Part shown: one piece after another, positions 6,929-33,654 of the stretch | Layout of the letters: every line of letters begins with the position of its first letter | Numbering within the stretch: position 1 is the first letter of the stretch | Origin: a virus | Taxonomy: Duplodnaviria; Caudoviricetes | Virus record (IMG/VR): IMGVR_UViG_3300045303_000219 | Location: 1-55,328 of that record | Length of the DNA stretch: 55,328 nucleotides | Reading direction: 5' to 3' (one strand) | Made by a program: the position numbers and the translations under genes | Notes under the pieces: generated by a model | What the model was told of the DNA's origin: nothing | The model's database searches: none | The model's input: the letters and a program-made list of their open reading frames with translations, nothing else

Positions 6929-6932
6929 AAAA

Positions 6933-7172: not shown

Positions 7173-7399
7173 TTCGCACCTCCCAGCACTTCACTTGGGG
7201 TTGGGGCGCTTCCGGGTTGGCGCACGCAGCACTCGGGCGCGCGTGAGGCCCCGACCATGCTGTAAACTTTGCCGCTGCCATCACGGTTCCGCATGATGAG
7301 CGCGATGCGCTGTTTGAAATCCGCGACCGACTCCGGTTGCGGTAGTATGCCGCGGGGCGCTTTGCCCCCGCCCGTTTTGCTGCTTTTCGTTTTCGTCAT
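7169..7399 (-). CDS. Hypothetical cassette-leading protein (MTKTKSSKTGGGKAPR...)
   Basis: Starts at the ATG of promoter element 1; ATGA-coupled downstream. Confidence 0.6.
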   Translation of the reverse strand: MTKTKSSKTGGGKAPRGILPQPESVADFKQRIALIMRNRDGSGKVYSMVGASRAPECCVRQPGSAPTPSEVLGGAK

Positions 7400-7471
7400 G
7401 CCGGACCTTCGCATGGAGTAGAAAGGCGCACAAGTGGAATTTTGCACTTTTTTTGATTTATTTTTAGGGCC
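7397..7471 (-). promoter_or_regulatory. Cassette promoter element copy 1 (leaderless)
   Basis: Minus strand: GGCC..AAAAATAAATCAAAAAAA..TTCCAC-TTGTGC-N17-GAAGGT-CCGGC-ATG. Confidence 0.8.
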
Positions 7472-7703
7472 GGTTTCCCGCCCGGGCGAGCGTGTGATTA
7501 TGCGCATCGCAAAACTCCTGCGCCTCCATGTGCGTGCGGAAGTTGGCGAGCGGCGTGCCGCTCACGTTGCGCTCGCTTTCGGCCTTCACCGCGTAGCCTT
7601 CGCGCCGGGTGCGGCGCCGCCGCCCGGTGGTCCACCAGCATACGTGCCACGGTTCCCGGGCGAAGCGCTCGCGCGCTCGCGCCCGGTTTGATTCGGCCCT
7701 CAT
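7464..7703 (-). CDS. Hypothetical protein (79 aa)
   Basis: MRAESNRAR...; ATGA-coupled; stop codon lies inside promoter element 1. Confidence 0.6.
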   Translation of the reverse strand: MRAESNRARARERFAREPWHVCWWTTGRRRRTRREGYAVKAESERNVSGTPLANFRTHMEAQEFCDAHNHTLARAGNRP

Positions 7704-8419
7704 GACACGCCCGGCTCGGGGCCGGTGTGCGCACACCCGGAATCGTCGACCCAATAATTGTGGCGCCCGTTTTGCTCGCGATATTCTTCGATGTAGCGTT
7801 CGGCCTCGCGGTCCTCGGCGAGTTCGAGGGCGCGCTTGGCGGTGTTCTGCACCTCGCGTTTTACGACCGCCTCCGCGGCCCGGGCCACTTCGGCGATCTC
7901 CGCGAAGGGGGGCATGGCGGGCTTGTGCCCGCATGCCGCCGCGGTGTGCCGGTGCGCGAAGTATTTGGCGCACACCGGGCCGATTGCACCGGCGACCGAT
8001 TTGGCCGCCTTGAGGTGCCGCCCGCACACGATGCACCGGGCGAACTTCGTCAGGAAGTCGTGGGCATCGGCAAGGTCCCAGCGATCGGTTTCGGTGAGTT
8101 TGTAGATCACCCCGGGCCGGTAAACCGCCTCAAAATCTACGACCGCGCCCGCCTCGGTCATGCGCGCCGGGGATTCAACGATCTCCTTCGCGTAGAACCG
8201 GGTTTTTTCGCGGTTGGGTTTCACCACGTAGATTTTGCCGTCTTTGCGGAACACGCCCATCTGGACCGTGGCCGCGGGCGCCGCCGCCGCTTGCGCGGTC
8301 TTCGGGCACTCTCCGACATGGCGCACACCGGCGCCGCGTTCCCATTCGCACTTCATGCCCGCGGGAATCACCCCGCCGCACTTCGTGCATTTGCCGCTGA
8401 ATTTTGCCGTGAGCGTCAT
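7700..8419 (-). CDS. Zn-ribbon plus DUF6011-like domain protein
   Basis: N-terminal AKFSGKCTKCGG...HVGEC; CIVCGRHLKAAKSVAGAIGPVCAK matches the DUF6011 pattern CxxCGRxL...S...GIGPxC. Confidence 0.75.
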   Translation of the reverse strand: MTLTAKFSGKCTKCGGVIPAGMKCEWERGAGVRHVGECPKTAQAAAAPAATVQMGVFRKDGKIYVVKPNREKTRFYAKEIVESPARMTEAGAVVDFEAVYRPGVIYKLTETDRWDLADAHDFLTKFARCIVCGRHLKAAKSVAGAIGPVCAKYFAHRHTAAACGHKPAMPPFAEIAEVARAAEAVVKREVQNTAKRALELAEDREAERYIEEYREQNGRHNYWVDDSGCAHTGPEPGVS

Positions 8420-8715
8420 TATACGATCTCCGCGTTGATGCCGTAGGTGGCGAGGTTCATTGTGACCTGCAGGGCCTCCCCGGCGGTGTTTGCGCGCTCC
8501 AGCTCCAGCCGGAACCGGGCGCCGTCTTCGGCGATGTTGGCGAGGGCGTTCGGTGTTTCGCTTTTGCTCACGAAGTGAATCGTGCCCTTGCCGTATCGGT
8601 AAAGGTAGAAGCGATTTCCGAGCCGGTCGGTCAACGTGATCGTCCATGCGCGCTCGATGTCATTGCGGGGCGCTTTGCCCCCGCCCGTTACTGCTTCGTT
8701 TTTCGTTTTCGTCAT
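8419..8715 (-). CDS. Hypothetical cassette-leading protein (MTKTKNEAVTGGGKAPR...)
   Basis: Starts at the ATG of promoter element 2; TAATG coupling to the next gene. Confidence 0.7.
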   Translation of the reverse strand: MTKTKNEAVTGGGKAPRNDIERAWTITLTDRLGNRFYLYRYGKGTIHFVSKSETPNALANIAEDGARFRLELERANTAGEALQVTMNLATYGINAEIV

Positions 8716-8786
8716 GCCCCCACAATAGCACCAGTGGAAAGGTGCACAAGTGGAAAATCGCAGATTTTTGAAGATTTATTTCGGCC
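8713..8786 (-). promoter_or_regulatory. Cassette promoter element copy 2
   Basis: Minus strand: GGCCGAAATAAATC..TTCCAC-TTGTGC-..TGC-TATTGT-GGGGGC-ATG. Confidence 0.85.
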
Positions 8787-9227
8787 CTAATTCCGGGCCG
8801 GAAACCGGACGATTTCGATTTCGGCGAAGCCGCCGCGCACCTTCTCGTTCACGACCGCGACCCCGTCGTAGCCGAGCGCCTGCATGGCCGCCACGGCTTC
8901 TGCCGCCCGGGCCGCCCGCGGTGTGAAATCACCGGCGCCGCCGCCGGGCTCGTTTGCGATCCCGCTGATGGTGCCGAAGCGATCGGCGATTTGCATGTAG
9001 GCTTCCTCGACCGTTAACACCAGCGGATTTGAAAGGCGAAGGCACATCCGAAAGGGGACCCCGTATTGGTCCGCCCGGATGAAGGATGTCGAGTAATACG
9101 TGCCGCACCCGAAGTCGCCCGGGTCGCTGGGCCGCCCCTCGGCTTTGATCCCGCGCCAGACCGGCATGCCGTGGGCCAAGCGTGCCCGTAGGCGTGCGAT
9201 TGTTCCGGCGGGTAGGCAGGTCGTCAC
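8787..9227 (-). CDS. ADP-ribosyltransferase-like protein (ART-PolyVal-like)
   Basis: VWRG...GDFGCGTYYST...A.QYG...LRLSNPLVL...ALGYDGVAV...EIVRF resembles the ART domain of polyvalent proteins. GTG start overlaps the upstream stop. Confidence 0.65.
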   Translation of the reverse strand: MTTCLPAGTIARLRARLAHGMPVWRGIKAEGRPSDPGDFGCGTYYSTSFIRADQYGVPFRMCLRLSNPLVLTVEEAYMQIADRFGTISGIANEPGGGAGDFTPRAARAAEAVAAMQALGYDGVAVVNEKVRGGFAEIEIVRFPARN

Positions 9228-9424
9228 GGCGCTGCCTTCATTGCGACATAAAAGCAGCGTCCGCGGTAGCCGCCTTGGACCACCTCCCATTCGCTCCCAA
9301 GTTCTGCTTGTTTAGTTTGGGCCGCTGCCCGGTTGGCATAGGCGAGCGTGATCAATCCGTGCGTGCTTTTTTGCGCCAGAACCACTGCGCCGTTGTCGAG
9401 GTTGCATGTGAGGGGCGCGCTCAT
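9224..9424 (-). CDS. Hypothetical protein (66 aa)
   Basis: MSAPLTCNLDNG...YANRAAAQ...; coupled at both ends. Confidence 0.65.
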   Translation of the reverse strand: MSAPLTCNLDNGAVVLAQKSTHGLITLAYANRAAAQTKQAELGSEWEVVQGGYRGRCFYVAMKAAP

Positions 9425-9540
9425 TCGTCGTCCTGCTCGGAGGCCGTGGAGGTGTCTTCCGGGTAAAAGGTGATCGTGATGAAGCGCCCTTTTACGGGGC
9501 ACCACCGGGTCTCGGTTTTCAGTTCGGTTTCGTTCGTCAT
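9421..9540 (-). CDS. Small cassette-leading protein (39 aa)
   Basis: MTNETELKTETRWCPVKGRFITITFYPEDTSTASEQDDE; starts at element 3. Confidence 0.6.
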   Translation of the reverse strand: MTNETELKTETRWCPVKGRFITITFYPEDTSTASEQDDE

Positions 9541-9611
9541 GCCGGACAATAGCACGCATGGAAAAGCGCACAAGTGGAAAAGTGAAGATTTCTGAAGATT
9601 TATTTCGGGCC
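9538..9611 (-). promoter_or_regulatory. Cassette promoter element copy 3
   Basis: Minus strand: GGCCCGAAATAAATC..TTCCAC-TTGTGC-N16-TATTGT-CCGGC-ATG. Confidence 0.85.
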
Positions 9612-9854
9612 GGAAATTGCCCGGATTCCGAGCGCGGCCCGGACCAGCGGGTGCCCTAGTGCGTGCCCGGTGCTGCCGTAAGTGCCGAGGCAGCGCTTGT
9701 AGGTTTTCCCGCCGGACGTCCATTCCTGCCAAACGTAGAGGCGCCCGTTTTTCATTACTTTGGCCAGCACCCGGGCACCGCCCGGCGCCGTGCCGAGCAC
9801 GCGAGGCCCCGGCGCGTTTTGGGTTGTGTCCTGCCGGGGCCTCCTCGTGTTCAT
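9600..9854 (-). CDS. Hypothetical protein (84 aa)
   Basis: ORF track; its TAA is the AAATAA of element 3. Confidence 0.6.
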   Translation of the reverse strand: MNTRRPRQDTTQNAPGPRVLGTAPGGARVLAKVMKNGRLYVWQEWTSGGKTYKRCLGTYGSTGHALGHPLVRAALGIRAISGPK

Positions 9855-10262
9855 TTAAGCGTTCGCGGCCTTCGCGGCACGCTTAGCCTCGCGCTGTTCG
9901 CGCAGGTAGGTTTTGATGGCGTTCAGCCGGATGTGGCTGCCTTGCGGGCCGACCGCCTTCGCATCCTCAAGGGTAGCGTAGGTGGGGGCCGGGGCCGCGG
10001 GGGCTTTGAGGGCGTCGCGGTGCCGCTTGCAAAGTTGCTGGCCGGTGATTTTGCTGATGCGCGCACCGCAGGAGTGGCACCCTTCAGCTTCGCAATATGC
10101 CCTGCCGTCGCCGCTCTTCTTACTTACCGGGGCCGCCGGTGCCGGGGCATCTTCTGCCGGGCATGTGCACTCGCGCTCGGGTGCCCCGCAAACCGGGCAA
10201 AAATCCCAGTCGTTTTCGAGGTAATCCAGCGCGCCGTTTTCGGTGTCAATTTCGTTCGTCAT
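9855..10262 (-). CDS. Cys-rich (Zn-binding) cassette-leading protein
   Basis: MTNEIDTENG...CPVCG...CTC...CEAEGCHSC...LCKRH. Confidence 0.7.
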   Translation of the reverse strand: MTNEIDTENGALDYLENDWDFCPVCGAPERECTCPAEDAPAPAAPVSKKSGDGRAYCEAEGCHSCGARISKITGQQLCKRHRDALKAPAAPAPTYATLEDAKAVGPQGSHIRLNAIKTYLREQREAKRAAKAANA

Positions 10263-10332
10263 GCCCGGACAATACACCCGGGGCACAAGTGCGCAAGTGG
10301 AATTTCACACTTTTTTTAATTTATTTTTGACC
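10260..10332 (-). promoter_or_regulatory. Cassette promoter element copy 4
   Basis: Minus strand: GGTCAAAAATAAATTAAAAAAA..TTCCAC-TTGCGC-..TG-TATTGT-CCGGGC-ATG. Confidence 0.85.
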
Positions 10333-10566
10333 GCCATTCCGGGGCGCCCGGACCCGCCACACCCGGTAACTTCCGTTCCCGGCGGTGCGCGAGATCAGCT
10401 TGATCCGCATGGCCCGGCCCGCGACGAAGGCCGCGTTCCGCTGCTGTGTAGTGAGCACGATCGAATCCCCGGTTCGCATTTGCCGGAGGATGTGCGCCCA
10501 GCCGCCGCCGCGTCGCGTCGCCTTCGGTGTGACCGGGACGTTGTGTTCGATTTCGATTTGATTCAT
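10321..10566 (-). CDS. Small basic putative DNA-binding protein
   Basis: IEIEHNVPV...MRTGDSI...YRVWRV pattern, seen in small phage DNA-binding proteins. Confidence 0.7.
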   Translation of the reverse strand: MNQIEIEHNVPVTPKATRRGGGWAHILRQMRTGDSIVLTTQQRNAAFVAGRAMRIKLISRTAGNGSYRVWRVRAPRNGGQK

Positions 10567-10612
10567 GCCCGCAGAAATACGGGAGACTTGCCGCATGTGA
10601 CAAGTTTAATCT
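10564..10612 (-). promoter_or_regulatory. Degenerate leaderless promoter element
   Basis: Minus strand: AAAC-TTGTCA-..-TATTTCT-GCGGGC-ATG; CAAGT lies 35 bp from the ATG. Confidence 0.5.
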
Positions 10613-10857
10613 TTGACGTGTCTCGGCGCGCTTTCGTCGTCCGGGTCAAGGCCCACATCGATCATGGCGGCCCGGCGCCGGGTTTCGCGCCGTAGCCGGG
10701 CGACCCATGATTCAAAGGCCGCCAGCACCTCGGGCTCCAGCACGATCCGGTTTCGCGGGTCGTCCGGGTAGCCGTTCTCGGTCGTGAGCACGATGCGCCC
10801 GTCGACGTCGACGTCGGCATACACCGAATCGCCGAGGTAGATTTTCCGGGCGCTCAT
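10606..10857 (-). CDS. Hypothetical phage protein (YLGDSVYA family)
   Basis: KIYLGDSVYADVD..GRIVLTTENG...IVLEPEVL, a recurrent small phage protein pattern. Confidence 0.75.
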   Translation of the reverse strand: MSARKIYLGDSVYADVDVDGRIVLTTENGYPDDPRNRIVLEPEVLAAFESWVARLRRETRRRAAMIDVGLDPDDESAPRHVKD

Positions 10858-11057
10858 GTGCCGCCGCCCTTGTGTTTGATGTCGGCTTTTAGGGCGTCGA
10901 TTTTTGATTCGACGTCGCTTTGAATTTCCTCTAGCGCCTCCAGCGTGACCGCCGGGGAGACGCTCATGTCGCCGAATAGGTTATCGACCGCGTCCGTCAC
11001 GATCTTCTGTTTTGCCGCAATGCGTGGATTCATATTTTTAATTCGAAATTTGCGCAC
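10854..11057 (-). CDS. Hypothetical protein (67 aa)
   Basis: ORF track; helical; ATGA-coupled. Confidence 0.6.
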   Translation of the reverse strand: MRKFRIKNMNPRIAAKQKIVTDAVDNLFGDMSVSPAVTLEALEEIQSDVESKIDALKADIKHKGGGT

Positions 11058-11096
11058 CCGGGCGGGGGGTCCCGGGCGCGCCGTATTTCAAGCCGT

Positions 11097-12323
11097 TTAG
11101 CGCACCGCCGCCAGCACCATCGCTGGCTCCTTGATGATTTTGCCCGCCAGCGACTCAAGGTCCCCGGCATCATCCGGGTCGTCGGTGTCCTGCGCGAGGC
11201 GGCTCACCGCCTGCGCGAAACCGAAGCGCGTCGGATCGTAATCGCGGAGGTAGTAGGTCAGCAGGGCCTCCCGCTGTTCTTCATTCACCGCCCCGGAAGC
11301 GATCACATTGTCGATCGCGGCGCTCGGGCTTGTGAGCGTGTCGGCCTGCGCGGCCTTCGCCTTTGCGACCATCAGTTTGAACTTCTCGGGATCAAATGCG
11401 GCACGCACCGCATCCCGGGCTTTCAGCATGATGGCCTTCGATTCCGCAGAAATCGTCTCCTGCGAAAAGATGCCTTCATCCAGCCGATCGCCGAGGTGCA
11501 CCCGGCTCACGACCGTCTCCAGCGAGGCGACGTTGAAACACATCCCGAGCAAAAGCCCGATTCGGATGTGGAAGCCGCCGTGCCCGGTTTCGCTATTGAG
11601 CGCCGTGACGACCGGGTGAATCGTGCCCGGGCCGCCGGGCAGCTCCCCGCGTATGCGGGCGCCGAGGATCGTCTTGCCCATCAGCTCCTTGTTGCCTATA
11701 GCACCGGCAAACCAGCCGCCCTGCGGGCCGCTGCGCTGGGTGACGTCGATAACGTCCCACACCTGCTGCGTGGTGAATTTGATCCGCATTCGCTTGTCGC
11801 TCAGGTCGGCTTCGAAAACCTGCGCGTCCCGTTTCCGGGCTTCATCGAGGCAGGTGTAGGCGATGTCTTCATTATCGATCACCCGGTAGCCGTTCGACAG
11901 CCACGCGCGCACCTCATTGTCGAGGCACCGCACGAGGCGCTTTTTCGGATCGTCGGCATGCAGGCCGTTCACTAGGTCCGCGAGCCGCCCCGGGCGCTCG
12001 TTCATTAGTGCGTCGAAATACCTCGTCGGCATTGCCGGGGTGAGGCGTTCCGCGAGCTGGTGGTATGCCGAGCGCTTCAGCATCATCGGACCCTCGGGCA
12101 TCCACTCGAATGCTTGGGCCGTGGCCGGGATGATTTTAATCCCGCCGTTCGCTTCCACGGTGAGGTGCCGCACATCGGCGACAAAATCATTCCGTGATTC
12201 TCTTTGCCGGTCCAGTTCGGTCACGAGCTGCTCCAGCGTGCCGCGCCCCTTCCACGAATCGTTATGCTCGGCGATCGTCGTCGAGCCGTTTTCGTGTAGG
12301 GGGTTTCCGTCCATTATGTTCAT
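11097..12323 (-). CDS. DUF932-family protein
   Basis: VRAWLSNGYRVIDN and NSETGHGG...LGMCFN motifs typical of DUF932; AGGAG SD. Confidence 0.75.
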   Translation of the reverse strand: MNIMDGNPLHENGSTTIAEHNDSWKGRGTLEQLVTELDRQRESRNDFVADVRHLTVEANGGIKIIPATAQAFEWMPEGPMMLKRSAYHQLAERLTPAMPTRYFDALMNERPGRLADLVNGLHADDPKKRLVRCLDNEVRAWLSNGYRVIDNEDIAYTCLDEARKRDAQVFEADLSDKRMRIKFTTQQVWDVIDVTQRSGPQGGWFAGAIGNKELMGKTILGARIRGELPGGPGTIHPVVTALNSETGHGGFHIRIGLLLGMCFNVASLETVVSRVHLGDRLDEGIFSQETISAESKAIMLKARDAVRAAFDPEKFKLMVAKAKAAQADTLTSPSAAIDNVIASGAVNEEQREALLTYYLRDYDPTRFGFAQAVSRLAQDTDDPDDAGDLESLAGKIIKEPAMVLAAVR

Positions 12324-12335
12324 TTTTTCTTACTC

Positions 12336-12593
12336 CTATTTTGCGCGGGTGTTTTCGCCGGTTCCCGCATCTCCGGTTTGGGCATTCCCGCGGCCCGGGC
12401 CGTGTGACCCGAAACCGCGAGCGCCCGAAATTGAGGGAGGCGGTCGGGTTGCGCCGTCGCGCACGGTGTCCCCACCGCCCCGCCGCCTCTGATGTTCTTG
12501 CCATCGCGCCCTGCATGCGGGCGCCGCGCACGTCACCTCGTCGGGCATGCGCAGCGCCGGGCAGTAAATGCAGAACCTTTTACGCCCCGACAT
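12336..12593 (-). CDS. Hypothetical Cys-motif protein
   Basis: MSGRKRFCIYC...TCAAPACRARWQ; fills the gap between neighbouring genes. Confidence 0.5.
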   Translation of the reverse strand: MSGRKRFCIYCPALRMPDEVTCAAPACRARWQEHQRRRGGGDTVRDGATRPPPSISGARGFGSHGPGRGNAQTGDAGTGENTRAK

Positions 12594-12957
12594 AATTGTA
12601 ATAACCGAGGCTGCCGACTTCGATCTTGCCGCCGCGCACGTAGTGCACCTCGGACCCGCCACAGAAGAAATCCAGCGCTTCGCGGATCACCCGGGCCTCG
12701 TTGATCGTGCGCACCTGCACACGCTTGGTCGGCATCTTCCAGTTGGTCTTGTCGAATAGCGGGTTGGCGATCGCCATCTTCGCATCGCGCTCGGCGTTGT
12801 TGCGCTTCGCCATTTCGACGTGCGCTACGGCCTCGGCTTGCGACACACCCGAAAGGGCGGCGCCGTCGCCGATCACTTTGCCATCCCGAATCATCTGAAA
12901 GCAGGCGTTGAATGCCCCTTTCCCGTCGCTCATTATGAACCAGTTTTCGTTCGTCAT
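12580..12957 (-). CDS. Hypothetical cassette-leading protein
   Basis: MTNENWF...FDKTNWKMP...ALDFFCGG...GYYNYVGA; starts at element 5. Confidence 0.75.
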   Translation of the reverse strand: MTNENWFIMSDGKGAFNACFQMIRDGKVIGDGAALSGVSQAEAVAHVEMAKRNNAERDAKMAIANPLFDKTNWKMPTKRVQVRTINEARVIREALDFFCGGSEVHYVRGGKIEVGSLGYYNYVGA

Positions 12958-13019
12958 GCGGGCACTTTCGCACATGTGGCAAATGGCACAAGTGATTTTT
13001 TAAACTATTTTTGCTGGCC
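12955..13019 (-). promoter_or_regulatory. Cassette promoter element copy 5 (about 10 bp shorter), back-to-back with the methyltransferase promoter
   Basis: Minus strand: GGCCAGCAAAAATAGTTTAAAAAATCAC-TTGTGC-..TGC-GAAAGT-GCCCGC-ATG. Confidence 0.75.
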
Positions 13020-13050
13020 TATTTTGGCCCGGGGTGTTACGATGCCGGGC

Positions 13051-15228: not shown

Positions 15229-15239
15229 AGTGTGAAAGT

Positions 15240-15275: not shown

Positions 15276-15281
15276 TTTTTG

Positions 15282-15820: not shown

Positions 15821-16305
15821 GCCTTGATCCCCCGTAGCACCGCGCCGTCGCGGATGAAATTGCGCTGGACCTTCGTGAAGGTGTCGAACACCGAGGCCAG
15901 CACGATCCGACCGTGCCATTTTTCGTCGAGGGGCGAGCACCATTTGGTTAGCACCCGGTCGGCCTCGTGAAGGTCGGCCTCCGTTTCGATCCACACCTGT
16001 GTGGAAACTGGCCGGGCCTCGGTCGTGATCGCGGTGATGTTCATGTAGCGCGGGTGGAAGCGCGGCTCGCGTGCGGGCGCCGGGGTCCGGCGCCGTTCGA
16101 TTTCGGTTTCGATTTCACGCACCGCACCCTCGTCGCCGCCTTCCTCACGGATCGCGTCCTGCTTGAACCGCAGCTCGGCGATGTTCAGATCGGCGTTTTC
16201 GAGTTCCGTTACGTGCCGCCCGTCCGGCATGTCGCCGTGGGCATTGCACCGGGGGCCGCTCCCCGCCGCGAGGCGGGCCATCATTTTGTCGGAGTTGCGC
16301 TTCAT
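15817..16305 (-). CDS. Hypothetical protein (162 aa)
   Basis: MKRNSDKMM...; AGGAGG SD and ATGA coupling. Confidence 0.7.
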   Translation of the reverse strand: MKRNSDKMMARLAAGSGPRCNAHGDMPDGRHVTELENADLNIAELRFKQDAIREEGGDEGAVREIETEIERRRTPAPAREPRFHPRYMNITAITTEARPVSTQVWIETEADLHEADRVLTKWCSPLDEKWHGRIVLASVFDTFTKVQRNFIRDGAVLRGIKA

Positions 16306-16487
16306 CGGGCCTCCTGACCGGCTTTGTAGGCCGCATCGAGTGCGGCACGTATGCCCCACACCGCAAGGTCGTGGAAATCCAGCGAATCGCTGTTCCGGGT
16401 TTCTAGCGTCTCAAGGTCGAGGTGCTGCTGGGCGATGCGGGCGAGTTTTTCGGCCCGCGCCTTCGCTTGTTCGTGAATGTTTTTCAT
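16302..16487 (-). CDS. DUF6900-family protein
   Basis: IAQQHLDLETLETRNSDSLDFHDLAVWGIRAALDAAYKAG is the characteristic DUF6900 signature. Confidence 0.85.
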   Translation of the reverse strand: MKNIHEQAKARAEKLARIAQQHLDLETLETRNSDSLDFHDLAVWGIRAALDAAYKAGQEAR

Positions 16488-16492
16488 CGGTA

Positions 16493-16714
16493 TTAAACCT
16501 CCCAGCGGTAGCCGCCGCCCAGTTCGATTGCGGTGCGCAGGTCGACGACCGCGAAGTTATCTTCCGGGCCGTCTACCACCGCGAAAATGTCGCGGTTGCC
16601 GACCGAGAGGCGGGCTTGGTTGCGCATGCGCATCCAGCTCGACGCTTCACCCTCGTCCGAGAAGAATTTGATGTAGGTTTCACTTTTCGCTGCTGCTTTA
16701 TTCGTTTTTGTCAT
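16493..16714 (-). CDS. Cassette-leading hypothetical protein, paralog of 18197-18580
   Basis: MTKTNKAAAK...SWMR...AVVDLRTAIELGGGYRWEV. Confidence 0.75.
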   Translation of the reverse strand: MTKTNKAAAKSETYIKFFSDEGEASSWMRMRNQARLSVGNRDIFAVVDGPEDNFAVVDLRTAIELGGGYRWEV

Positions 16715-16784
16715 GCCGGACAATAGCACCCGTGGAACCGTGCGCAAGTGGAAAAGTGAAAATAAATCAAAATATTTTTCGGCC
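16712..16784 (-). promoter_or_regulatory. Cassette promoter element copy 6
   Basis: Minus strand: GGCCGAAAAATATTTTGA..TTCCAC-TTGCGC-..TGC-TATTGT-CCGGC-ATG. Confidence 0.85.
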
Positions 16785-17099
16785 CCTTTTTCGGGGGTTT
16801 GGCCGGTCCTGCGGGATGCCCATTTCCCGGCACCGGGCGGTCCATGCCGCGTCGGTCGGTTCACGTAGGAAACCGATCCCGGCGAGAAACTTCAGCTGGG
16901 CGTCCCGGGCGCCGCGGCATAGGCGCTCCTTCTTGCCGGTCGGGCCAGTGAAGGGGCTCAGGCCGGTGTTATGGCAAATCCGGGATTCATGCCCGAGTGC
17001 CCGCTCCTCAAGGTAGCCGCGCAGGCCCGCGTGCGGGCTTCCCGGCCTCCACGGGCACGTAGCGCACATGGTGCGGTTTAACGGCCTCCTGTCGCTCAT
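16767..17099 (-). CDS. Cys-rich protein (DUF6283-like)
   Basis: CATCPWR...ICH...LCRG motif. Confidence 0.65.
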   Translation of the reverse strand: MSDRRPLNRTMCATCPWRPGSPHAGLRGYLEERALGHESRICHNTGLSPFTGPTGKKERLCRGARDAQLKFLAGIGFLREPTDAAWTARCREMGIPQDRPNPRKRGRKIF

Positions 17100-17494
17100 G
17101 GCGCCGCCTCCCGGCGGGCCGCCCGATATTCATCGAGGGCGCGCCGCCAGCGTGCCCGGGCGCGCCGGATCGCCTCCTCTTGCCGGTCCCGTTCCAGCAC
17201 CCGAAGCTTCCATTCCTGATGCCAGCTTTCGGCGATGCCCCATAGGCGCTTCACCTCCTCGTTCTGCTTGCCCGCGTGTAGCCGCCGCAGCCAGCGGTCG
17301 GCCCGGCGGGTGTAGGCGCCCAGCGCCCGGGTCTTGAAATCCGGGGCCTCCTGCCCGCATGCCGGGCAGACCGCGTAGGCCCGGGCGCCGAACAATTTGG
17401 CCCGCACCGCGGTCTCCTGCCGCTCGGCGTCGTCGACGTGCTGCTTGCACACCGCGCACTCGAAAAGTTGCGCCTGCCGTAGCGCCAGCGTCAC
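17096..17494 (-). CDS. Hypothetical Zn-ribbon protein
   Basis: GTG start; CAVC...CPAC followed by a helical tail. Confidence 0.65.
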   Translation of the reverse strand: MTLALRQAQLFECAVCKQHVDDAERQETAVRAKLFGARAYAVCPACGQEAPDFKTRALGAYTRRADRWLRRLHAGKQNEEVKRLWGIAESWHQEWKLRVLERDRQEEAIRRARARWRRALDEYRAARREAAP

Positions 17495-17718
17495 CGGGCC
17501 TCCAGTGAAAAGTGTTCGCACTCCTCGGCGGTAAGCGCCCGGTCGGTAGCGATTACGCCGTAGCGGTGCACGCTCGGCGGGATGTCGGGCCGCCGGTGCG
17601 CAAGGTCGGGCGGCGCTTCGCAATAGCGCCAGTCAATGCCCGGCGGTAGCGTGCACGCCGACGCGGGCCGCAGCAGCGGTTTGTAGCGGTGCAGGCCGAA
17701 TAGAAGGGCGTCGTTCAT
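17491..17718 (-). CDS. DarA C-terminal-like (defence-against-restriction / polyvalent protein) domain
   Basis: HRYKPLLRPASACTLPPG...RYGVIATDRALTAEECEHFSL matches Y..RP....P.G...YG.i...r.Lt.eE...f.L. Confidence 0.6.
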   Translation of the reverse strand: MNDALLFGLHRYKPLLRPASACTLPPGIDWRYCEAPPDLAHRRPDIPPSVHRYGVIATDRALTAEECEHFSLEAR

Positions 17719-18024
17719 TTAGTCGTTCCAGATTTTGACGGTCATGCCGAAGGCACTTTTGTCGACGCGCCCGGTGCGCCGGTCGATCGACCGATACACC
17801 CAGCCCACGATTTCATCTTCCCGCATGATGTGCCCGCAGGCCACGAAGGTGACCAGCTCGCCGGTGCGCATGCTGACAAGGGTGAAGCCCTCATCGCATG
17901 CGTCGGGCCACACCTGATGAAGGCGTAGGCCCTCCGGGCCGAAGTCGCTGGCCTCGGCGGACCCGGTGTTGCCGATCCATGTTAACAAGTTGGCGAGGAT
18001 CGGTGTGCCGTGCATGAACCTCAT
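17719..18024 (-). CDS. Hypothetical protein (101 aa)
   Basis: AEASD...VWPDACDEGFTLVSMRTG...VKIWND pattern; GGAGGT SD. Confidence 0.75.
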   Translation of the reverse strand: MRFMHGTPILANLLTWIGNTGSAEASDFGPEGLRLHQVWPDACDEGFTLVSMRTGELVTFVACGHIMREDEIVGWVYRSIDRRTGRVDKSAFGMTVKIWND

Positions 18025-18191
18025 CGGGCACCTCCCCCGCGGTAGCGGTTCAGATATTCGGCGAGGGTTTCGCCGGGCTTGCGTGCCGGGCCGAAAGGCG
18101 CCTGCACGTTGTAGTTTTTCGGCGCCGGGAGGTGCTGCTTGAGCACCGCGATCAGGTCGACCGTTTGCGTTTCGTTCGTGTCGTTCGTCAT
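18021..18191 (-). CDS. Hypothetical protein (56 aa)
   Basis: MTNDTNETQTV...PGETLAEYLNR; GGAGG SD. Confidence 0.6.
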   Translation of the reverse strand: MTNDTNETQTVDLIAVLKQHLPAPKNYNVQAPFGPARKPGETLAEYLNRYRGGGAR

Positions 18192-18196
18192 GGCTA

Positions 18197-18580
18197 TTAA
18201 ACCTCCCAAGTGTATTTCGCCCCGGCGTTGATTGCGGTGCGCAGGTCGCACACCGCCCAGCGGTCACCGGCCTGCACTACGACGCGAAGGTCGGCGCGGC
18301 CCCGGCGGGTGTTAAAACTTTTCGTGCCGTTCATCGAGCGCATCCAGCTCATGGCCGCGCCCTCGGTCTTGTGATACGTGATCTTGGAGGTGATCGGTGC
18401 GACCGCCATGCGGGCGTTGAAATCCGCCGCGATTTTTTCGGCGTCGGCTTTGCTATCCATCCACTCGCTGGGCATGCCGCCCGGAAAAACGACGAGGTGT
18501 TTGTGCCAGTAGGGGTCGATCGAAGTATGAACGCGGGCAAGCGCCCCGTTCCCGTTGCTGCTATTATTTGCTTTTGTCAT
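18197..18580 (-). CDS. Cassette-leading hypothetical protein, paralog of 16493-16714
   Basis: MTKANNS...SWMR...AVCDLRTAINAGAKYTWEV. Confidence 0.75.
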   Translation of the reverse strand: MTKANNSSNGNGALARVHTSIDPYWHKHLVVFPGGMPSEWMDSKADAEKIAADFNARMAVAPITSKITYHKTEGAAMSWMRSMNGTKSFNTRRGRADLRVVVQAGDRWAVCDLRTAINAGAKYTWEV

Positions 18581-18650
18581 GCCCCACAATGCCACAGGTG
18601 TAATAGTGTGCAAGTCGAAAATCAAAGATTTTTTGATTTATTTTTCGGCC
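18578..18650 (-). promoter_or_regulatory. Cassette promoter element copy 7
   Basis: Minus strand: GGCCGAAAAATAAATCAAAAAATC..TCGAC-TTGCAC-..TGG-CATTGT-GGGGC-ATG. Confidence 0.85.
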
Positions 18651-18859
18651 CGGGTTTTGGCCCATGTTCCCGCCCGCACGTAGCCGCCCCGGACCCGGCA
18701 GTATTTGATCGCGCCCCGGGCCTTCAGCCGGTCGATGGCGTTGTGCTCGGCAATTGTGAGAACGCCGACCGGGTGCCACGCACCGAAGCGCGCAATGTTC
18801 CCGAGCACCCAATCCTCGTTTGCCCGCATGGCCGCCGCGATCCGTTCGTGCGCCTTCAT
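18638..18859 (-). CDS. Hypothetical protein (73 aa)
   Basis: MKAHERIAA...; stop codon inside element 7. Confidence 0.65.
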
Positions 18860-19116
18860 GTAGCACCCCACTTTTTAGGCGGCACGAAATCCGGCTCGAT
18901 AGCCATGACCACGAAGCCGTCCTTTTGCTCAAAGTCGGTGATGTAAGTAATGCGCCGCGCAAGCCATCTGCCGGTGTAGCGCCCGCCCTCCCACTCGCGC
19001 AGCATGATCCGGTCCTTCACTTTGAAATCCCGGTCGTTGCGCCGTATCTCAAACGTCTTTCGGAACGCCGCCACGGCGGCAAAAAACTCCGGGGCCGACT
19101 TCAGCTCGTGGTTCAC
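18856..19116 (-). CDS. ASCH/PUA-like DUF3850 protein
   Basis: HELK..PEFF.AV...[16 protein letters not shown]...LREW...YTGR...ITYI. Confidence 0.88.
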
Positions 19117-19352
19117 GTAGCCGCCTCCTTGCCCGCCGCGGTGATGCGGTAAACGCAGCCCCAGCTCGCGTGCTTTAAATACTCAACGAGGCCCCGACGC
19201 TCCAGCGCGATCGCGGTCGCCCGCGCGTGCACGGTGAATTTGCGCCCGTTGATGTTCCCGGTGTAGCCGTGCCGCCCGTAGCCGATCGCCAAGATCGTGC
19301 CGTCCGGGGACCGGGCCGCCTCGTGTAAAAGTGCCTCCTGTGCCGCGTTCAT
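19113..19352 (-). CDS. Hypothetical wHTH-like protein
   Basis: [12 protein letters not shown]...YRITAAGK wing motif. Confidence 0.65.
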
Positions 19353-19507
19353 GTAGCCTTGCATTTGCCGCCATCGGGGCGTTTCACGCGGCGCGATACG
19401 CAGTGACCGCAAATGCGCTGCCCGTTTAGGAAATACCATCGCCGCTTTTTCCATTTGCCGCACAAGGGACAGGCGAGCGGCGGGCGCTGGGTGATGCCGG
19501 GCTTCAT
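19349..19507 (-). CDS. Small Zn-finger protein (52 aa)
   Basis: CPLC...ICGHC; ATGA-coupled. Confidence 0.6.
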   Translation of the reverse strand: MKPGITQRPPLACPLCGKWKKRRWYFLNGQRICGHCVSRRVKRPDGGKCKAT

Positions 19508-19740
19508 GTGGCGACCCCCGGGTGCACCATGATGGGCACGCACGCTTGGCAATACGCCTCCCGCTCCCCCCATTTGACCGGGGCGCCGCACCGCGGGCAC
19601 TCCCCGGTTCTGCACCACGCACCGGCGGCCACGGCATCGGTGCCGAATTCGACCACCTTCCGGCGGCCTTTGTAGCCGTTCCAATTGCCCCAAATATTCT
19701 GGTGGATGCGCCGGGTGTTGGGGATGCGGCGCCTTCTCAC
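19504..19740 (-). CDS. Hypothetical Zn-ribbon protein (78 aa)
   Basis: NIWGNWNGY...CPRCG...YCQAC. Confidence 0.65.
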   Translation of the reverse strand: MRRRRIPNTRRIHQNIWGNWNGYKGRRKVVEFGTDAVAAGAWCRTGECPRCGAPVKWGEREAYCQACVPIMVHPGVAT

Positions 19741-20093
19741 GAAAGGTCCTCCAGTAGGATGTAGCGGGCGCCCGCCTTCGCGGCCAGCTCGTAACCTTCG
19801 TGTTCCGAAAAATCCTCCCGGGGCCGGGCATAGTAGAAAATCCCGTTCGCCCGGCAGTAGGCTTTGAAGGCCTCGACCATGCTCACCGGGCTCACGTAGA
19901 AGTTGGCCGCTTGAAATTGCGGCGGCAGGTCCTCATCCCGGATCGGCGTGATCTGCGGTGCCGCATTCATGCGGGCCGCCATCTGGCGCGCCCGGGCCTC
20001 GGTGATGTTTTCGGCGATGGGCCGTGCGCCCTTGCGCACGACCGCCCATGCCGGGCCGTATTGAACCGCGATGTAATCGTAGGCGCCGCTCAT
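19737..20093 (-). CDS. Hypothetical protein (118 aa)
   Basis: ORF track; coupled at both ends. Confidence 0.7.
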   Translation of the reverse strand: MSGAYDYIAVQYGPAWAVVRKGARPIAENITEARARQMAARMNAAPQITPIRDEDLPPQFQAANFYVSPVSMVEAFKAYCRANGIFYYARPREDFSEHEGYELAAKAGARYILLEDLS

Positions 20094-20506
20094 GCCGCAC
20101 CCCCGATCGGGACGAGGCGAATGATCCGGTCCCAGTTTCCGGCGGGCCGCGGGGCCGCATTGTGGAAGGTCACGAAGCCGCGGGGGTCGGGCATGTCGAA
20201 CTTCGAAACGACGCTGCGCTCGTGAATCGCCGCTACGGTGTAGGGCCGCGTGGCGACCGCGCGAAGCATCAGGGTCTCGCCGTTCGCCAGCGTGCCGACG
20301 AACTGAAAGCCCTTTTTGACCGCGGTGCGCTCGACGCTAATAAGGTCGGCGGCGAAGGCCGCGGACCCGGCGATTTGCGCTTGGCGCTCGGCCTCCAGCC
20401 GTGCCGCGTGCTCGATGCACGTTAGGCAGGGGTCGGCGGGATTCACCGTGCCGCAGATGTCGCACGCTACGAGGCCGTCGAGATTGATGTAGGTTTTGCC
20501 GCTCAT
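20090..20506 (-). CDS. Hypothetical protein (138 aa)
   Basis: MSGKTYINLDGLVACDICG...CLTC; ATGA-coupled. Confidence 0.7.
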   Translation of the reverse strand: MSGKTYINLDGLVACDICGTVNPADPCLTCIEHAARLEAERQAQIAGSAAFAADLISVERTAVKKGFQFVGTLANGETLMLRAVATRPYTVAAIHERSVVSKFDMPDPRGFVTFHNAAPRPAGNWDRIIRLVPIGGAA

Positions 20507-20730
20507 TGCGCACCCCCTGCCATCTTGCGAAGGCGGCGGCGGATGTCGCGGCGCTCGTTGCGGCGGTGTCTCAAGCCGGTCGTGTAACTGCGGCGGGCCA
20601 TCCATCCTGCAGGCCAGTGATCCCAGCTTCCGGTCGGAGGTGCTACCGTGACCGTTTTTTCGTATGCCAAACTGGTCGCGAGTTTCTCGCGCAATTCGGC
20701 TTCATTCATGTCCCATATTGGTTTTGTCAT
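20503..20730 (-). CDS. Cassette-leading hypothetical protein (75 aa)
   Basis: MTKPIWDMNEAELR...; starts at element 8. Confidence 0.7.
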   Translation of the reverse strand: MTKPIWDMNEAELREKLATSLAYEKTVTVAPPTGSWDHWPAGWMARRSYTTGLRHRRNERRDIRRRLRKMAGGAQ

Positions 20731-20801
20731 GCCGTATAATCGCACAAGTAGAATAGTGCGCAAGTGGAATTTGTAAGATTTCTCAAACTATTTTTCGCGC
20801 C
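20728..20801 (-). promoter_or_regulatory. Cassette promoter element copy 8
   Basis: Minus strand: GGCGCGAAAAATAGTTTGA..TTCCAC-TTGCGC-..TGC-GATTAT-ACGGC-ATG. Confidence 0.85.
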
Positions 20802-21082
20802 CTTTTCGGGGCCTCCAGCCGGGCATCGAATAGCACCTCGGCGTCGTCGCCACGGCAGTAGATTGTGATGGCGCGCCCGTCCGGTGCCCGGCCCTTCAGC
20901 CATGCCCGCAGGTCGCGCATGCCGACCAGCTCGCCCATCCATGCGCCGTGCCGGTCCTGATCCCACGGCTCGCCGAAATCCGAACAATCGTTCTGCACGT
21001 AGTGCCAGAACACTTCGCACGGCTCGCCGGGCTTGCGCACGTAGGCGACCGCATCCTTCAGCCGGTCATTGAGGCCGCTCAT
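20783..21082 (-). CDS. Hypothetical protein (99 aa)
   Basis: MSGLNDRLKDAVAY...; stop codon inside element 8. Confidence 0.65.
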   Translation of the reverse strand: MSGLNDRLKDAVAYVRKPGEPCEVFWHYVQNDCSDFGEPWDQDRHGAWMGELVGMRDLRAWLKGRAPDGRAITIYCRGDDAEVLFDARLEAPKRARKIV

Positions 21083-21285
21083 TGCCCGGCCTCCACGTCG
21101 ATCGCCCAATCGTAGACCGCCCGGTAGTGCCGGAAATGCTCGACCGTGCACTCCCACCGGCGGCTTGCCGGGAGGCCGTAAATGTCCTGCACGCCGCCCT
21201 CGGCGCACCGATAAACCTCGCCGCGGATCAGCCAGAACTCCCACCCGGCGCCCTTTGCGATGATGCGTGCCGGTGCGGCGGTCAT
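21079..21285 (-). CDS. Hypothetical protein (68 aa)
   Basis: ORF track; ATGA-coupled. Confidence 0.7.
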   Translation of the reverse strand: MTAAPARIIAKGAGWEFWLIRGEVYRCAEGGVQDIYGLPASRRWECTVEHFRHYRAVYDWAIDVEAGQ

Positions 21286-21575
21286 GCCGCACCCCCGCCG
21301 TTAAGGTCCGCCGTGGTCAGCCATCCGACCGTCGCCGCGGTGCGCGGTGCGCACTTCGCCGGGTTGGCAAAGTAGCGCTGGCCCACACCGCCCTGCTGGA
21401 CCCACCGGGCGCCGTCCCACCGCTGCCACGGAATGATCCGCACTAGCAGGCCGCGCTCGGCGTCGATTTGCTCGACGCGAACGACCGCGCCGAAGTTTAA
21501 AACGATGTCGCCCACTTCGATGGGCCGGGCGACTTGGCCTTTATCAGCTCGCGCTGTCATTTGTGCGTTTTTCAT
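21282..21575 (-). CDS. Hypothetical protein (SH3/KOW-like start IEVGDIV)
   Basis: MKNAQMTARADKG...IEVGDIVLNFGAVVRVEQI. Confidence 0.65.
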   Translation of the reverse strand: MKNAQMTARADKGQVARPIEVGDIVLNFGAVVRVEQIDAERGLLVRIIPWQRWDGARWVQQGGVGQRYFANPAKCAPRTAATVGWLTTADLNGGGAA

Positions 21576-21582
21576 TTTTCTC

Positions 21583-21702
21583 TTAGCCGTGCAGAAAGGT
21601 GTGCAGTAGGTGTAGGAAGTGAATCGCATCCTCGATCACATGGTGGTGGTGGTGCGCGTGTGCGATCGCCTTGTGGGCGGTTACTAGGATTCGGTTTGTC
21701 AT
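21583..21702 (-). CDS. His-rich peptide (39 aa, 11 His)
   Basis: MTNRILVTAHKAIAHAHHHHHVIEDAIHFLHLLHTFLHG; starts at the ATG of element 9. Confidence 0.7.
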   Translation of the reverse strand: MTNRILVTAHKAIAHAHHHHHVIEDAIHFLHLLHTFLHG

Positions 21703-21775
21703 GCTCACACTTTCGCACGTTTCTACAAGTGCGCAAGTGGAAATCTAAAGATTTCTTAAAATAGTTTTTGAGGCC
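21700..21775 (-). promoter_or_regulatory. Cassette promoter element copy 9
   Basis: Minus strand: GGCCTCAAAAACTATTTTAAGAAATC..TTCCAC-TTGCGC-..TGC-GAAAGT-GTGAGC-ATG. Confidence 0.85.
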
Positions 21776-33652: not shown

Positions 33653-33654
33653 GG

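Follow-up and report, generated by a model that had tools for sequence, protein, structure and literature searches.

Nine repeats in a soil myovirus genome are probable leaderless early-promoter modules

A 55,328-nt phage record, which in its entirety is the window analysed here, carries nine copies of a roughly 85-bp repeat. All are on the minus strand, within 7.4–21.8 kb, and the rest of the record has none. With a probability of about 0.7, we read the nine repeats as one leaderless early-promoter expression module used by host RNA polymerase. In this module, a short GC hairpin would end the upstream gene, whose stop codon would lie in the A/T tract that follows; three A tracts about 11 bp apart would act as a UP element-like sequence or as bent DNA; a −35 element, (C)TTGYGC, would be separated by 16–17 nt from TGn and a −10-like hexamer (TATTGT, GATTAT, GAAAGT and similar); and a GC-rich discriminator of 5–6 nt would lead into ATGAC(A/G)AA. 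Transcription would begin at the A of the element's ATG. Each module would launch a polycistronic mRNA with a leaderless first cistron, the downstream genes of the block being served by Shine-Dalgarno sites or overlapping stop and start codons, and over time the module would become fused in frame to differing genes. A role of the repeats as recombination sites is possible, secondary to expression.

Nine copies and the genes behind them

An nhmmer scan of the whole record with an HMM built from the nine copies returned exactly nine matches (7385–21777, E = 7.5e-24 to 4.8e-17), as expected by construction for a model trained on the same copies; the next-best match in the record has E = 0.035. 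An independent check with the exact pattern TTCCACTTGYGC-N25/26-GCATGAC matched seven of the nine copies, against 0 in 100 shuffles. The scan and the pattern together confirm the nine minus-strand elements of the original prediction. The 5′ 16-mer given there for the start of the element is looser: at up to 3 mismatches it has four matches, against 0.74 expected, and three of them fall at elements.

The copies, which we number from the highest coordinate down, head blocks of 2–8 small ORFan genes in a hypervariable region, with 722–3757 bp from one ATG to the next. Copy 1 (ATG 21702; 21689–21776, E = 2.2e-20) fits the exact pattern, as do copies 6 and 7, and has a block of four small genes behind it, starting with a 39-aa ORF (21583–21702). 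Copy 2 (ATG 20730; 20717–20802, E = 2.2e-21) precedes a 75-aa ORF (20503–20730). Copies 3 (ATG 18580; 18567–18653, E = 1.2e-21) and 4 (ATG 16714; 16701–16787, E = 8e-22) lead ORFs of 127 aa (18197–18580) and 73 aa (16493–16714), respectively, which are paralogous at 41–43% identity; a local patch of differences from G001, a close relative, covers 16680–16738 at copy 4. Copy 5 (ATG 12957; 12944–13031, E = 4.8e-17), with a plus-strand methylase gene upstream, precedes a 125-aa ORF (12580–12957), and copy 6 (ATG 10262; 10249–10335, E = 8e-21) one of 135 aa (9855–10262). Copy 7 (ATG 9540; 9528–9613, E = 8.1e-23) leads a 39-aa ORF (9421–9540). Behind copy 8 (ATG 8715; 8702–8788, E = 7.5e-24), a 98-aa ORF (8419–8715) is followed by a conserved DUF6011 gene (Pfam; 7700–8419). 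Behind copy 9 (ATG 7399; 7387–7473, E = 2.4e-19), a 76-aa ORF (7169–7399) is followed by a 79-aa ORF and a conserved 478-aa HATPase-like gene (5492–6928).

A tenth, 'degenerate' site with its ATG at 10566 (10564–10625, minus strand), counted earlier with the family, was rejected as a copy: it has no match to the nine-copy HMM at E ≤ 10, nor to a broader model at E ≤ 1e-3. Its arrangement, TTGTCA-N18-TATTTC-N7-ATG, is promoter-like by eye only, and it would be at most a separate weak promoter.

Layout of the unit

The copies share a 5′ part made up of a small GC hairpin with the stop codon of the preceding gene, phased A tracts and (C)TTGYGC, and a 3′ part made up of a 16–17-nt spacer, TGn with a −10-like hexamer, 5–6 GC-rich nucleotides and ATGAC(A/G)AA. 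This layout bears out the description of the repeats as having the anatomy of strong promoters fused to an upstream stop and a downstream start. The stop codon lies within, or at the 5′ edge of, seven of the nine copies, in keeping with the claim that the element usually includes it along with the next start; the exceptions are 12957, preceded by the opposite-strand methylase gene, and 21702, with the stop some 140 nt upstream.

The spacing is nearly constant. A distance of 31–32 bp to the ATG had been claimed for all nine copies; our script measured an ACTTG-to-ATG interval of 30–31 nt in six and took a second ACTTG in the other three, and in the alignment this part differs by only 1 nt among all nine. 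The ATG comes 70–73 nt after the last GGCC-like word in eight copies; at 12957 it comes after 62 nt, so the claim of one copy about a helical turn (~10 nt) shorter holds.

Other parts are less regular. Hairpin z-scores are modest (−0.5 to −3.9), with a clear hairpin beside the A tract in only six of the nine copies, and a terminator scan did not call the element hairpins because no T run follows them. The −10-like hexamer is variable, and two copies in a related genome (G004) lack its position 2 A (TCTAGT). A scan with the E. coli σ70 consensus, which may not be that of the host, called none of the nine copies because the −35 element agrees with TTGACA at only three of six positions.

A start codon at the predicted transcription start

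Several lines of evidence suggest that each block probably opens with a leaderless gene. First, the ATG follows the −10-like hexamer by 5–7 nt in 26 copies from four records, so that its A falls at the predicted transcription start, with no Shine-Dalgarno sequence ahead of it. Of the nine first genes, none has a strict Shine-Dalgarno word before it, compared with 31 of 90 other genes; the arrangement TGn + [TG]AnnnT + 5–7 nt + start codon is found at seven of the nine and at none of the 90. The leaderless implication of this geometry had been missed in the original prediction.

Second, the sequence from the predicted start is the best-conserved part of the unit. All 22 distinct copies have ATGA at +1 to +4, A at +7 and C or T at −1, and 21 of them have C at +5; across lineages, +1 to +8 is the best-conserved block of the whole element. 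Element start codons read ATGA in 40 of 44 cases and ATGAC in 32 of 44 (leaving out G001, a close relative of the window).

Third, the ATG opens plausible genes. Element-led ORFs close within the locus in 42 of 44 cases, with a median of 117 codons, and 41 of these 42 have at least 30 codons, compared with 63% of all 1810 ATGs of the same loci; two of the window's first ORFs are only 39 codons long. A codon-bias gene caller, unprompted, took the element ATG as the start for eight of nine first genes. One contig of a single RNA run spans the copy at 10262, contigs being unable to show RNA ends.

Distribution and gene portability

Scanning with a broader model gave 48 copies, spread over 8 of 10 array loci of related contigs. 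Beyond the window there are 39 copies in seven related viral contigs, plus a three-copy variant: a ninth locus (L078) has its own repeat of A tracts, TTTACA, spacer, TAACTT, GGCGGC and ATGAC, laid out as in the window element but different in sequence. Its recurrence with this layout in seven additional related contigs makes the repeat, judged from its sequence, a clade-wide expression module of uncultured soil myoviruses.

Genes also change their relation to the module. Members of four gene families are element-led, putatively leaderless first genes in one genome and internal genes in another, and their homology begins a few codons after the ATG (for example, MTNETKS versus MAKQKQN, and MTKTY versus MSGKTY).

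Two other readings were considered. ATGAC(A/G)AA could be mainly an initially transcribed or regulatory sequence of the promoter and not mainly a start codon, either as an RNA 5′-end operator for a phage translational repressor or nuclease, or with the TTCCAC direct repeat as a DNA site for a phage regulator; transcription may then begin a few nucleotides off the ATG's A. The strong conservation of +1 to +8 would suit such a role, as would the lineage-specific bases that follow (ACGAAA in the window, ACAACGAC in L095, AA(T/A/C)A in L094 and L099) and the presence of TTCCAC-N3-TGC twice, 15 nt apart, in most window copies. However, in every case an ORF of plausible length continues in frame from the ATG, orthologous proteins meet the element a few codons further on, and no alternative start with a Shine-Dalgarno sequence lies nearby. 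We regard this reading as quite improbable in place of a start codon, with which a regulatory role would be compatible.

It is scarcely credible that the repeats are not promoters at all, being instead a MITE- or REP-like mobile element, replication iterons or integron-like attachment sites. Their dispersal, phased A tracts and short hairpin might recall such elements, but the copies all point one way, in the direction of the genes; each stops precisely where an ORF starts, mostly overlapping the previous stop codon; and their alignment has no visible terminal inverted repeats or target-site duplications. Nor do copies occur outside the phage clade in the collections scanned: none of 19 genome loci proved real, and the one real locus among 30 from metagenomes is a fragment of the same phage. 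A lambdoid moron is one gene with an unrelated promoter and terminator of its own, and integron cassettes are promoterless and require an integrase and attC inverted repeats. The blocks here resemble both as self-contained expression units in variable phage regions and as arrays of small accessory genes, but neither attC inverted repeats nor, among 40 window ORFs scanned, an integrase was found.

Comparison with known promoters and start-associated repeats

Leaderless mRNAs include λ cI transcribed from PRM and examples from Thermus phage phiYS40, and are common in Mycobacterium and Deinococcus. The element resembles them in having a −10 element 5–7 nt before an AUG that is the predicted mRNA 5′ end, without a Shine-Dalgarno sequence; it differs in being a repeated, conserved module with a fixed AUGACRAA start that serves unrelated genes, its start site being predicted. 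Phage transcripts are often leaderless, according to the available part of one account (PMC5312081).

A close likeness is to PeSL of T4-type phages, and we read the element as a leaderless variant of the PeSL or repeated early promoter type. As far as the available text describes them, PeSLs are ~100-bp repeats with an AT-rich tract, a σ70-like promoter and a stem-loop that take in the upstream gene's stop and the downstream gene's start codon (Arbiol et al. 2010, PMC2839356; Comeau et al. 2014, PMC4122927). The analogy drawn in the original prediction is apt on that description (PMC2839356): both systems combine AT-rich tract, promoter, stem-loop, stop and start in one repeat, and in both the repeats are concentrated in hyperplastic regions directly 5′ of ORFans, with some differential ORFs between close relatives adjoining them. 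The window element differs in lacking a Shine-Dalgarno sequence, in placing the start codon at the predicted +1, in a conserved unit that covers the first eight bases predicted to be transcribed, and in a hairpin without a T run that is not called a terminator. Its phage is a ~55-kb RecT-bearing soil myovirus and not T4-type.

PAK_P1-like Pseudomonas myoviruses carry 41-nt repeated σ70 early promoters (PMC4309531). In the available portion of that account, these are five or six clade-specific, promoter-bearing intergenic repeats in the early region, with a near-consensus TTGACA-N17-TAgAAT, and are not described as extending to the start codon; in the window, the −35 element is weak by E. coli standards, the −10 is of the extended type and the ATG lies within the unit. 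The start-associated sequence (SAS) of Cluster K mycobacteriophages is, in the text available, a 13-bp repeat with a Shine-Dalgarno-like AGGAG 3–7 bp before the start and not a promoter (PMC3203893). SAS and ESAS share with our element their clade specificity, single orientation and position immediately 5′ of non-structural gene starts, often including the upstream stop, and a gene family may carry the repeat in some genomes only (PMC3203893, same portion). The window unit, by contrast, is a whole predicted promoter without a Shine-Dalgarno sequence.

Possible recombination in the gene array

The original prediction also proposed cassette shuffling through exchange between copies. In its fullest, PeSL-type form, which we think unlikely, the copies would be both promoters and preferred crossover sites, and RecT or host recombination would delete, insert and swap promoter-to-promoter cassettes, possibly via circles.

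Part of the evidence fits. The putatively early region is hyperplastic: most cassette genes have no homolog in other lineages, in contrast to the syntenic structural and replication modules. Between the window and G001, rearrangement is greatest at copy 2 (20730), where the contig joints 20794>21104 and 20397>20722 are also listed. In the pairwise alignment there, identical blocks of 40 and 15 nt enclose five differences within 18 nt, four of the five G001 bases being those of the copy at 8715, and the window version has a G005-type core over 16 nt. Window genes absent from G001 (99 and 75 aa) flank it on both sides. A joint (7476>7707) lies at the upstream edge of copy 9. Between L094 and L099, the whole cassette between the family 12 and family 1 cassettes is replaced. 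The element lies inside 0 of 24 instances of conserved gene adjacency (only three distinct gene pairs) and 10 of 30 broken ones.

Exchange between copies is another matter. Copies within the genome are 48–79% identical, with exact shared blocks of at most 20 nt (median 12), a poor substrate for homologous exchange. Identity is 0.667 for same-genome copies, 0.665 for positional orthologs and 0.629 for unrelated cross-genome pairs; since same-genome copies show no excess of similarity over positional orthologs, homogenisation is weak. Among the 15 joints listed from contigs of four sequencing runs, and among the seven long-range joints, none links two elements, although contigs drop rare forms. 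Of the 30 ends of the listed joints, three fall no more than 10 nt from an element edge, against ~0.6 expected at random by our own arithmetic, but 9 of about 54 gene junctions carry an element, and against that baseline there is no enrichment. Of five ORFs that clearly distinguish the window from G001, two touch an element, compared with 10 of 14 in phi1/RB49 in the available PeSL text (PMC2839356), and two precise single-gene deletions (19487–19723 and 22585–22834) lie away from elements. Synteny across relatives had been offered as a check on shuffling, and cassette order proved largely the same in L094, L095, L098 and L099, most indels in the array being single genes gained or lost inside cassettes. 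The shuffling idea finds partial support in the hot spot, the joint ends near edges and the four switching families; mini-circles and inter-element exchange belong to the PeSL picture, as far as its available description goes, and not to the window data.

The genome does encode recombination proteins. The recombinase, earlier called Bet, is a RecT-family single-strand annealing protein (28876–29904, plus strand; PF03837, E = 5.5e-27) and was not identified as Bet. Its gene adjoins that of a PD-(D/E)XK/DUF2800 exonuclease (26675–27877, minus strand; PF10926, E = 3.6e-21; PF12705, E = 2.5e-09; phrog_69), its likely partner. Upstream of the RecT operon, where nhmmer gives a weak match (28277–28303, plus strand, E = 2), we read from the bases a partial variant of the same promoter type (28283–28336, plus strand): TTTTCCACTTGAC ... 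CATTGT-GAAAA-ATGCACGAAAAC.

A nine-copy repeat of fixed geometry

The original prediction described nine repeats in this region, and all nine stretches align over about 85 nt. A hidden Markov model (HMM) of the nine copies returned exactly those nine in the record, all on the minus strand, with E values of 7.5e-24 to 4.8e-17 (next match, E 0.035). As a model-independent control, the exact pattern TTCCACTTGYGC-N25/26-GCATGAC matched 7/9 copies and none of 100 shuffles. The nine-copy repeat is thus confirmed as an observation; its copies are named here by the position of their terminal ATG, from 21702 (copy 1) to 7399 (copy 9). The claimed fixed spacing also holds, with ACTTG to ATG at 30–31 nt and GGCC to ATG at 70–73 nt, except in the copy at 12957, where the latter distance is 62 nt. 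The 'degenerate' tenth copy proposed at 10566, by contrast with the nine, is undetectable as a family member with either a narrow or a broad HMM.

Read 5′ to 3′ on the minus strand, the element opens with a short GC hairpin with an A-rich loop, clear in 6/9 copies and abutting the A tract (hairpin z-scores of −0.5 to −3.9). A/T tracts with a period of about 11 nt follow, and the upstream gene usually ends within them, at a TAA or TAG. Next come TTCCAC and then TTG(T/C)GC, a spacer of 16–17 nt in which TTCCAC-N3-TGC is often repeated, and TGn with a −10-like hexamer (for example, TATTGT, GATTAT, CATTGT or GAAAGT). Five or six GC-rich bases, the last a pyrimidine, lead into ATGAC(A/G)AA. The A tracts, TTGYGC, the 16–17-nt spacer and TGn with its hexamer are present in 9/9 copies.

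A plain consensus scan based on Escherichia coli, whose consensus may not be that of the host, called 0/9 copies as promoters because the −35 fits at only 3/6 positions; what points to a promoter is thus conservation together with the extended −10 layout and the UP-like tracts, and not a consensus score. The same type of scan called none of the nine hairpins a terminator, because no T run follows them. The ATG begins 5–7 nt after the −10-like hexamer, and in 22/22 distinct copies position −1 is a pyrimidine and position +1 is A. Provided that the hexamer is a −10 element, established promoter geometry would place the canonical +1 on the A of the ATG.

A predicted leaderless start codon

We consider the element to be a promoter with its start codon and, more sharply, the head of leaderless mRNAs, a prediction to which we give a probability of roughly 70%. 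The promoter and start-codon parts were already in the original prediction and are strengthened by several kinds of evidence.

First, a codon-bias gene caller, unprompted, chose the element ATG as the start of 8/9 first genes, that is, the open reading frames (ORFs) opened by the element. Strict Shine–Dalgarno words precede none of these nine genes, compared with 31/90 other genes, and the layout of TGn, hexamer, 5–7 nt and start codon precedes 7/9 first genes and 0/90 others. With +1 on the ATG, as predicted, neither a Shine–Dalgarno sequence nor a 5′ UTR would stand before the start codon, as in leaderless genes.

Second, the ORFs that follow are long. Across all lineages, with the close relative G001 excluded, 42/44 element-led ORFs close within their locus, with a median of 117 codons; 41 of these 42 reach at least 30 codons, as against 63% of all 1,810 ATGs in the same loci. 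The start codons of the same 44 elements read ATGA in 40 cases and ATGAC in 32, and orthologues join the element a few codons downstream of the ATG.

Contigs of the metatranscriptome run X5 cover parts of the array; because contigs cannot show RNA ends or absence, they count neither for nor against this reading. One such contig stops at 8706, which is 9 nt before the predicted +1 at 8715 is reached (a contig end, not an RNA end), and another spans the copy at 10262, again as contig data blind to RNA ends. The bin 12963–13613 is almost without X5 coverage, which in contigs cannot show absence of transcript.

Conservation across related viral loci

Pattern and protein searches of IMG/VR yielded the close relative G001 (92–99% DNA identity) and the more distant contigs G004 and G005. 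Alignment of a conserved DUF6011 protein added four lineages (L094, L095, L098 and L099), and alignment of a conserved 478-aa protein added L078. With a broadened model, 48 copies were found in 8/10 array loci (window 9, G001 7, G004 4, G005 6, L094 4, L095 7, L098 7, L099 4); the locus L100 had none. In searches of both strands, copies were always on the strand of the array genes. Within the element, positions +1 to +8 form the most conserved block (22 distinct copies from the first four records). L078 lacks this sequence family and carries three copies of its own repeat in the same layout: A tracts, TTTACA, spacer, TAACTT, GGCGGC and ATGAC. A layout conserved where sequence is not would, in our view, be less expected of a recombination site than of an expression signal.

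Exact-pattern scans of metagenome (30 loci) and genome (19 loci) collections gave chance matches throughout, apart from a single real one, L035, a 2-kb fragment of the same phage. L075, the one locus added by a second pattern scan of viral contigs, was also a chance match. Among 16 loci with a homologue of the 478-aa protein, the element occurs only in G004 and the element variant only in L078.

The 478-aa gene (5492–6928, minus strand) follows the array, and its product resembles the Pfam domains HATPase_c_3 and Sacsin only weakly, with scores below the cutoff. Its homologues, at 35–62% identity, lie in 16 viral contigs, including several of 210–360 kb, and in one uncultured 485-kb phage record. 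The array and this gene (about 5492–22837) are co-directional with the replication module in the window and G001, and inverted and convergent with it in G004 and G005. Just upstream of the first element of G004 (L065), at about 1500–1550, GGTTCGATTCC is flanked by GCTGG/CCAGC and resembles a tRNA T-arm fragment; ARAGORN called no tRNA there.

A hyperplastic array with genes in two states

All nine copies lie in the variable region of the genome. Cassette genes are mostly ORFans: of the distinct array proteins scanned, 17/20 are without a family in Pfam and 8/10 without one in PHROGs. Synteny across lineages is seen in the structural and replication modules, at 30–87% protein identity; the array shares only a few families.

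Four gene families are element-led in one genome and internal to a cassette in another. The DUF6011 protein is a first gene, predicted to be leaderless, in G004, G005, L094, L095, L098 and L099 (MTNES..., MTNQT...) and a second gene in the window (MTLTAKF...). The 478-aa protein is element-led in G005 (MTNETKS) and L098, and internal in the window (MAKQKQN). Conversely, a 76-aa protein that is internal in G004 and G005 has the element in front of it in the window. Finally, the gene at 20090–20506 lies within a cassette in the window (MSGKTY), whereas in G001 it directly follows an element (MTKTY). In all four families homology starts a few codons past the start, and therefore the module, first codons included, is gained, lost or moved relative to the genes. 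For the gene at 20090–20506, the G001 junction falls in a shared AAAAC string, which would fit a short-homology deletion.

The first genes of copies 3 and 4 (18197–18580 and 16493–16714, minus strand) are paralogues with 41–43% identity, which suggests an old duplication of the element together with its first gene.

An N6/N4 DNA methylase gene (PF01555; 12820–13869, plus strand) lies inside the array, convergent with the copy 4 cassette; the long methylase ORF overlaps copy 5, and an ATG at 13042, just outside the element, is its more likely start. Between the helicase module and the first array genes, about 230 nt of AT-rich non-coding sequence (22838–23075, minus strand) contains a palindrome at about 22918–22960, with a stem of about 12 bp, that was called terminator-like on both strands. 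The surrounding stretch, 22526–23576, is replaced in G001 and in X4, a run with the G001-type lineage. At 28283–28336, on the plus strand, a partial variant of the same promoter type reads TTTTCCACTTGAC ... CATTGT-GAAAA-ATGCACGAAAAC; the promoter type may thus extend beyond the array. This variant lies in the divergent control region before the RecT operon; the reading frame from its ATG is only about 15 codons long, and the RecT-side gene at 28455 comes with a separate AGGAGG.

Possible exchange between copies

The original prediction had whole cassettes shuffled by exchange between copies. As the main engine of variation in the array, such shuffling seems to us unlikely, a minority reading, although some differences fit local exchange. 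When the window is compared with the G001/X4 lineage, rearrangement is greatest at the copy at 20730, which in the window is flanked by two additional genes, of 99 aa on one side and 75 aa on the other; the hairpins also differ. The window and G001 copies are identical there over 40 nt (A tract and −35) and over 15 nt around the ATG, but the spacer and −10 differ at 5 positions in 18 nt, G001 matching copy 8715 over 17 nt and the window matching a G005-type core over 16 nt. At copy 16714, a local patch of differences spans 16680–16738.

Contigs of four sequencing runs, which drop rare forms, were compared with window positions 4.5–24 kb. Among the 15 rearrangement joints listed, 3/30 ends (7476, 20722 and 20794) fall within 10 nt of an element limit. 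However, 9 of about 54 gene junctions carry an element, a baseline against which joint ends at elements show no enrichment. None of the joints listed, all from contigs, runs from element to element, and the remaining ones are precise single-gene deletions (for example, 19487–19723 and 22585–22834) or patches within genes. Between the window and G001, only 2/5 clear differential ORFs touch an element.

Copy identities also speak against frequent homogenization by exchange. Window copies are 48–79% identical, with a longest shared exact block of 20 nt, and paralogous copies (0.667) are no closer than positional orthologues in other genomes (0.665), unrelated cross-genome pairs standing at 0.629. 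Cassette order is mostly the same in L094, L095, L098 and L099, with single genes varying inside cassettes, yet families 3, 21, 22 and 57–62 occupy different cassettes, and L094 and L099 differ by the replacement of a complete cassette. The DNA of the more distant arrays, at 65–86% identity, is too diverged for crisp breakpoints, and a conserved-adjacency junction test was so heavily non-independent (24 'conserved' instances from 3 gene pairs) that its p-values are not evidence. On our reading, what stands of the shuffling proposal is occasional exchange at or near copies; that exchange is not established as the main engine of variation.

An integron-like cassette array was also considered and rejected: a scan of 40 window ORFs turned up no integrase, the alignment of copies shows no inverted-repeat recombination site of the attC kind, and the units, unlike the promoterless cassettes of an integron, carry a promoter-like core.

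Relation to known systems

The closest described system is the PeSL of T4-type phages, the analogy already drawn in the original prediction. A PeSL comprises an AT-rich tract, a sigma70-like promoter, a stem-loop, an upstream stop codon and a downstream Shine–Dalgarno sequence with a start codon, and is found ahead of ORFans in hyperplastic regions; its activities as promoter and terminator and in mini-circle formation have been demonstrated (PMC2839356). Repeated sigma70 promoters in PAK_P1-like phages (PMC4309531) and start-associated repeats in Cluster K mycobacteriophages (PMC3203893) are likewise described.

The analogy holds for the layout as an expression unit, with its stop and start codons and promoter activity here predicted from sequence, and for the location in a hyperplastic region upstream of ORFans. 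It fails in one defining feature: unlike a PeSL, the element is without a Shine–Dalgarno sequence, its start codon standing at the predicted +1. The hairpin does not look terminator-like, and the phage is of a different kind. A literature search that covered few subscription journals returned neither a repeated leaderless promoter module from a phage nor a clade-wide module whose promoter stops precisely at a conserved start codon and serves unrelated genes in frame.

A broader proposal, which we regard as speculative and unlikely, is that the element is a portable cassette head, 'promoter plus start codon' in about 85 bp ending in AUGACRAA, that would express any gene joined in frame a few codons on. 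The copies and their A-rich first codons would also supply short stretches of homology at which genes could be captured or deleted and patchy gene conversion could occur, giving integrase-free turnover of accessory genes in a soil myovirus clade, and the invariant 5′ AUGACRAA might also be a handle for phage-encoded post-transcriptional shut-off of early genes.

Should the start site be confirmed, the element would be a compact natural part for leaderless expression and would mark early ORFan genes, likely for host takeover or anti-defence, of an uncultured soil phage group. It would also provide a clean system for gene gain and loss in phage accessory regions, with four families already in both states, and hint at efficient translation of leaderless mRNAs by the host. 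Clade-wide and testable, the design is neat, but it stands close to known repeated early promoters.

The phage record

The window spans the complete record, 55.3 kb with 62% GC, and nearly all genes are on the minus strand. By PHROG and Pfam scans it belongs to a contractile-tailed phage, with portal, major head, sheath, tape-measure and baseplate proteins; the same scans show a DnaB-like helicase, a RecT-family annealing protein and a PD-(D/E)XK exonuclease. The sequence is present in soil metagenome runs of several studies. It has no close isolated phage: megablast of the array region against the phage collection gave no match, and the best protein identity to isolated phages is at most 46% (tblastn with the portal, sheath and 478-aa proteins). 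No tRNA genes or Rfam matches were found in the window, and no tRNA genes in seven related loci.

The record opens inside the terminase gene (1–1491, minus strand), with residues 35–510 of the G005 homologue aligning to 1431–1; the missing C-terminal portion does not turn up at the far end, which makes the record possibly incomplete. In the major head protein ORF (49278–50654, minus strand), a C-terminal stretch of about 70 residues (about 377–450) resembles small PHROG families with endonuclease VII or Arc-like annotations; a small gene may have been fused or mis-joined here. The stretch 33186–33658, between the baseplate and tail-fibre genes, corresponds to a 157-aa ORF (33179–33652) that G001 lacks.
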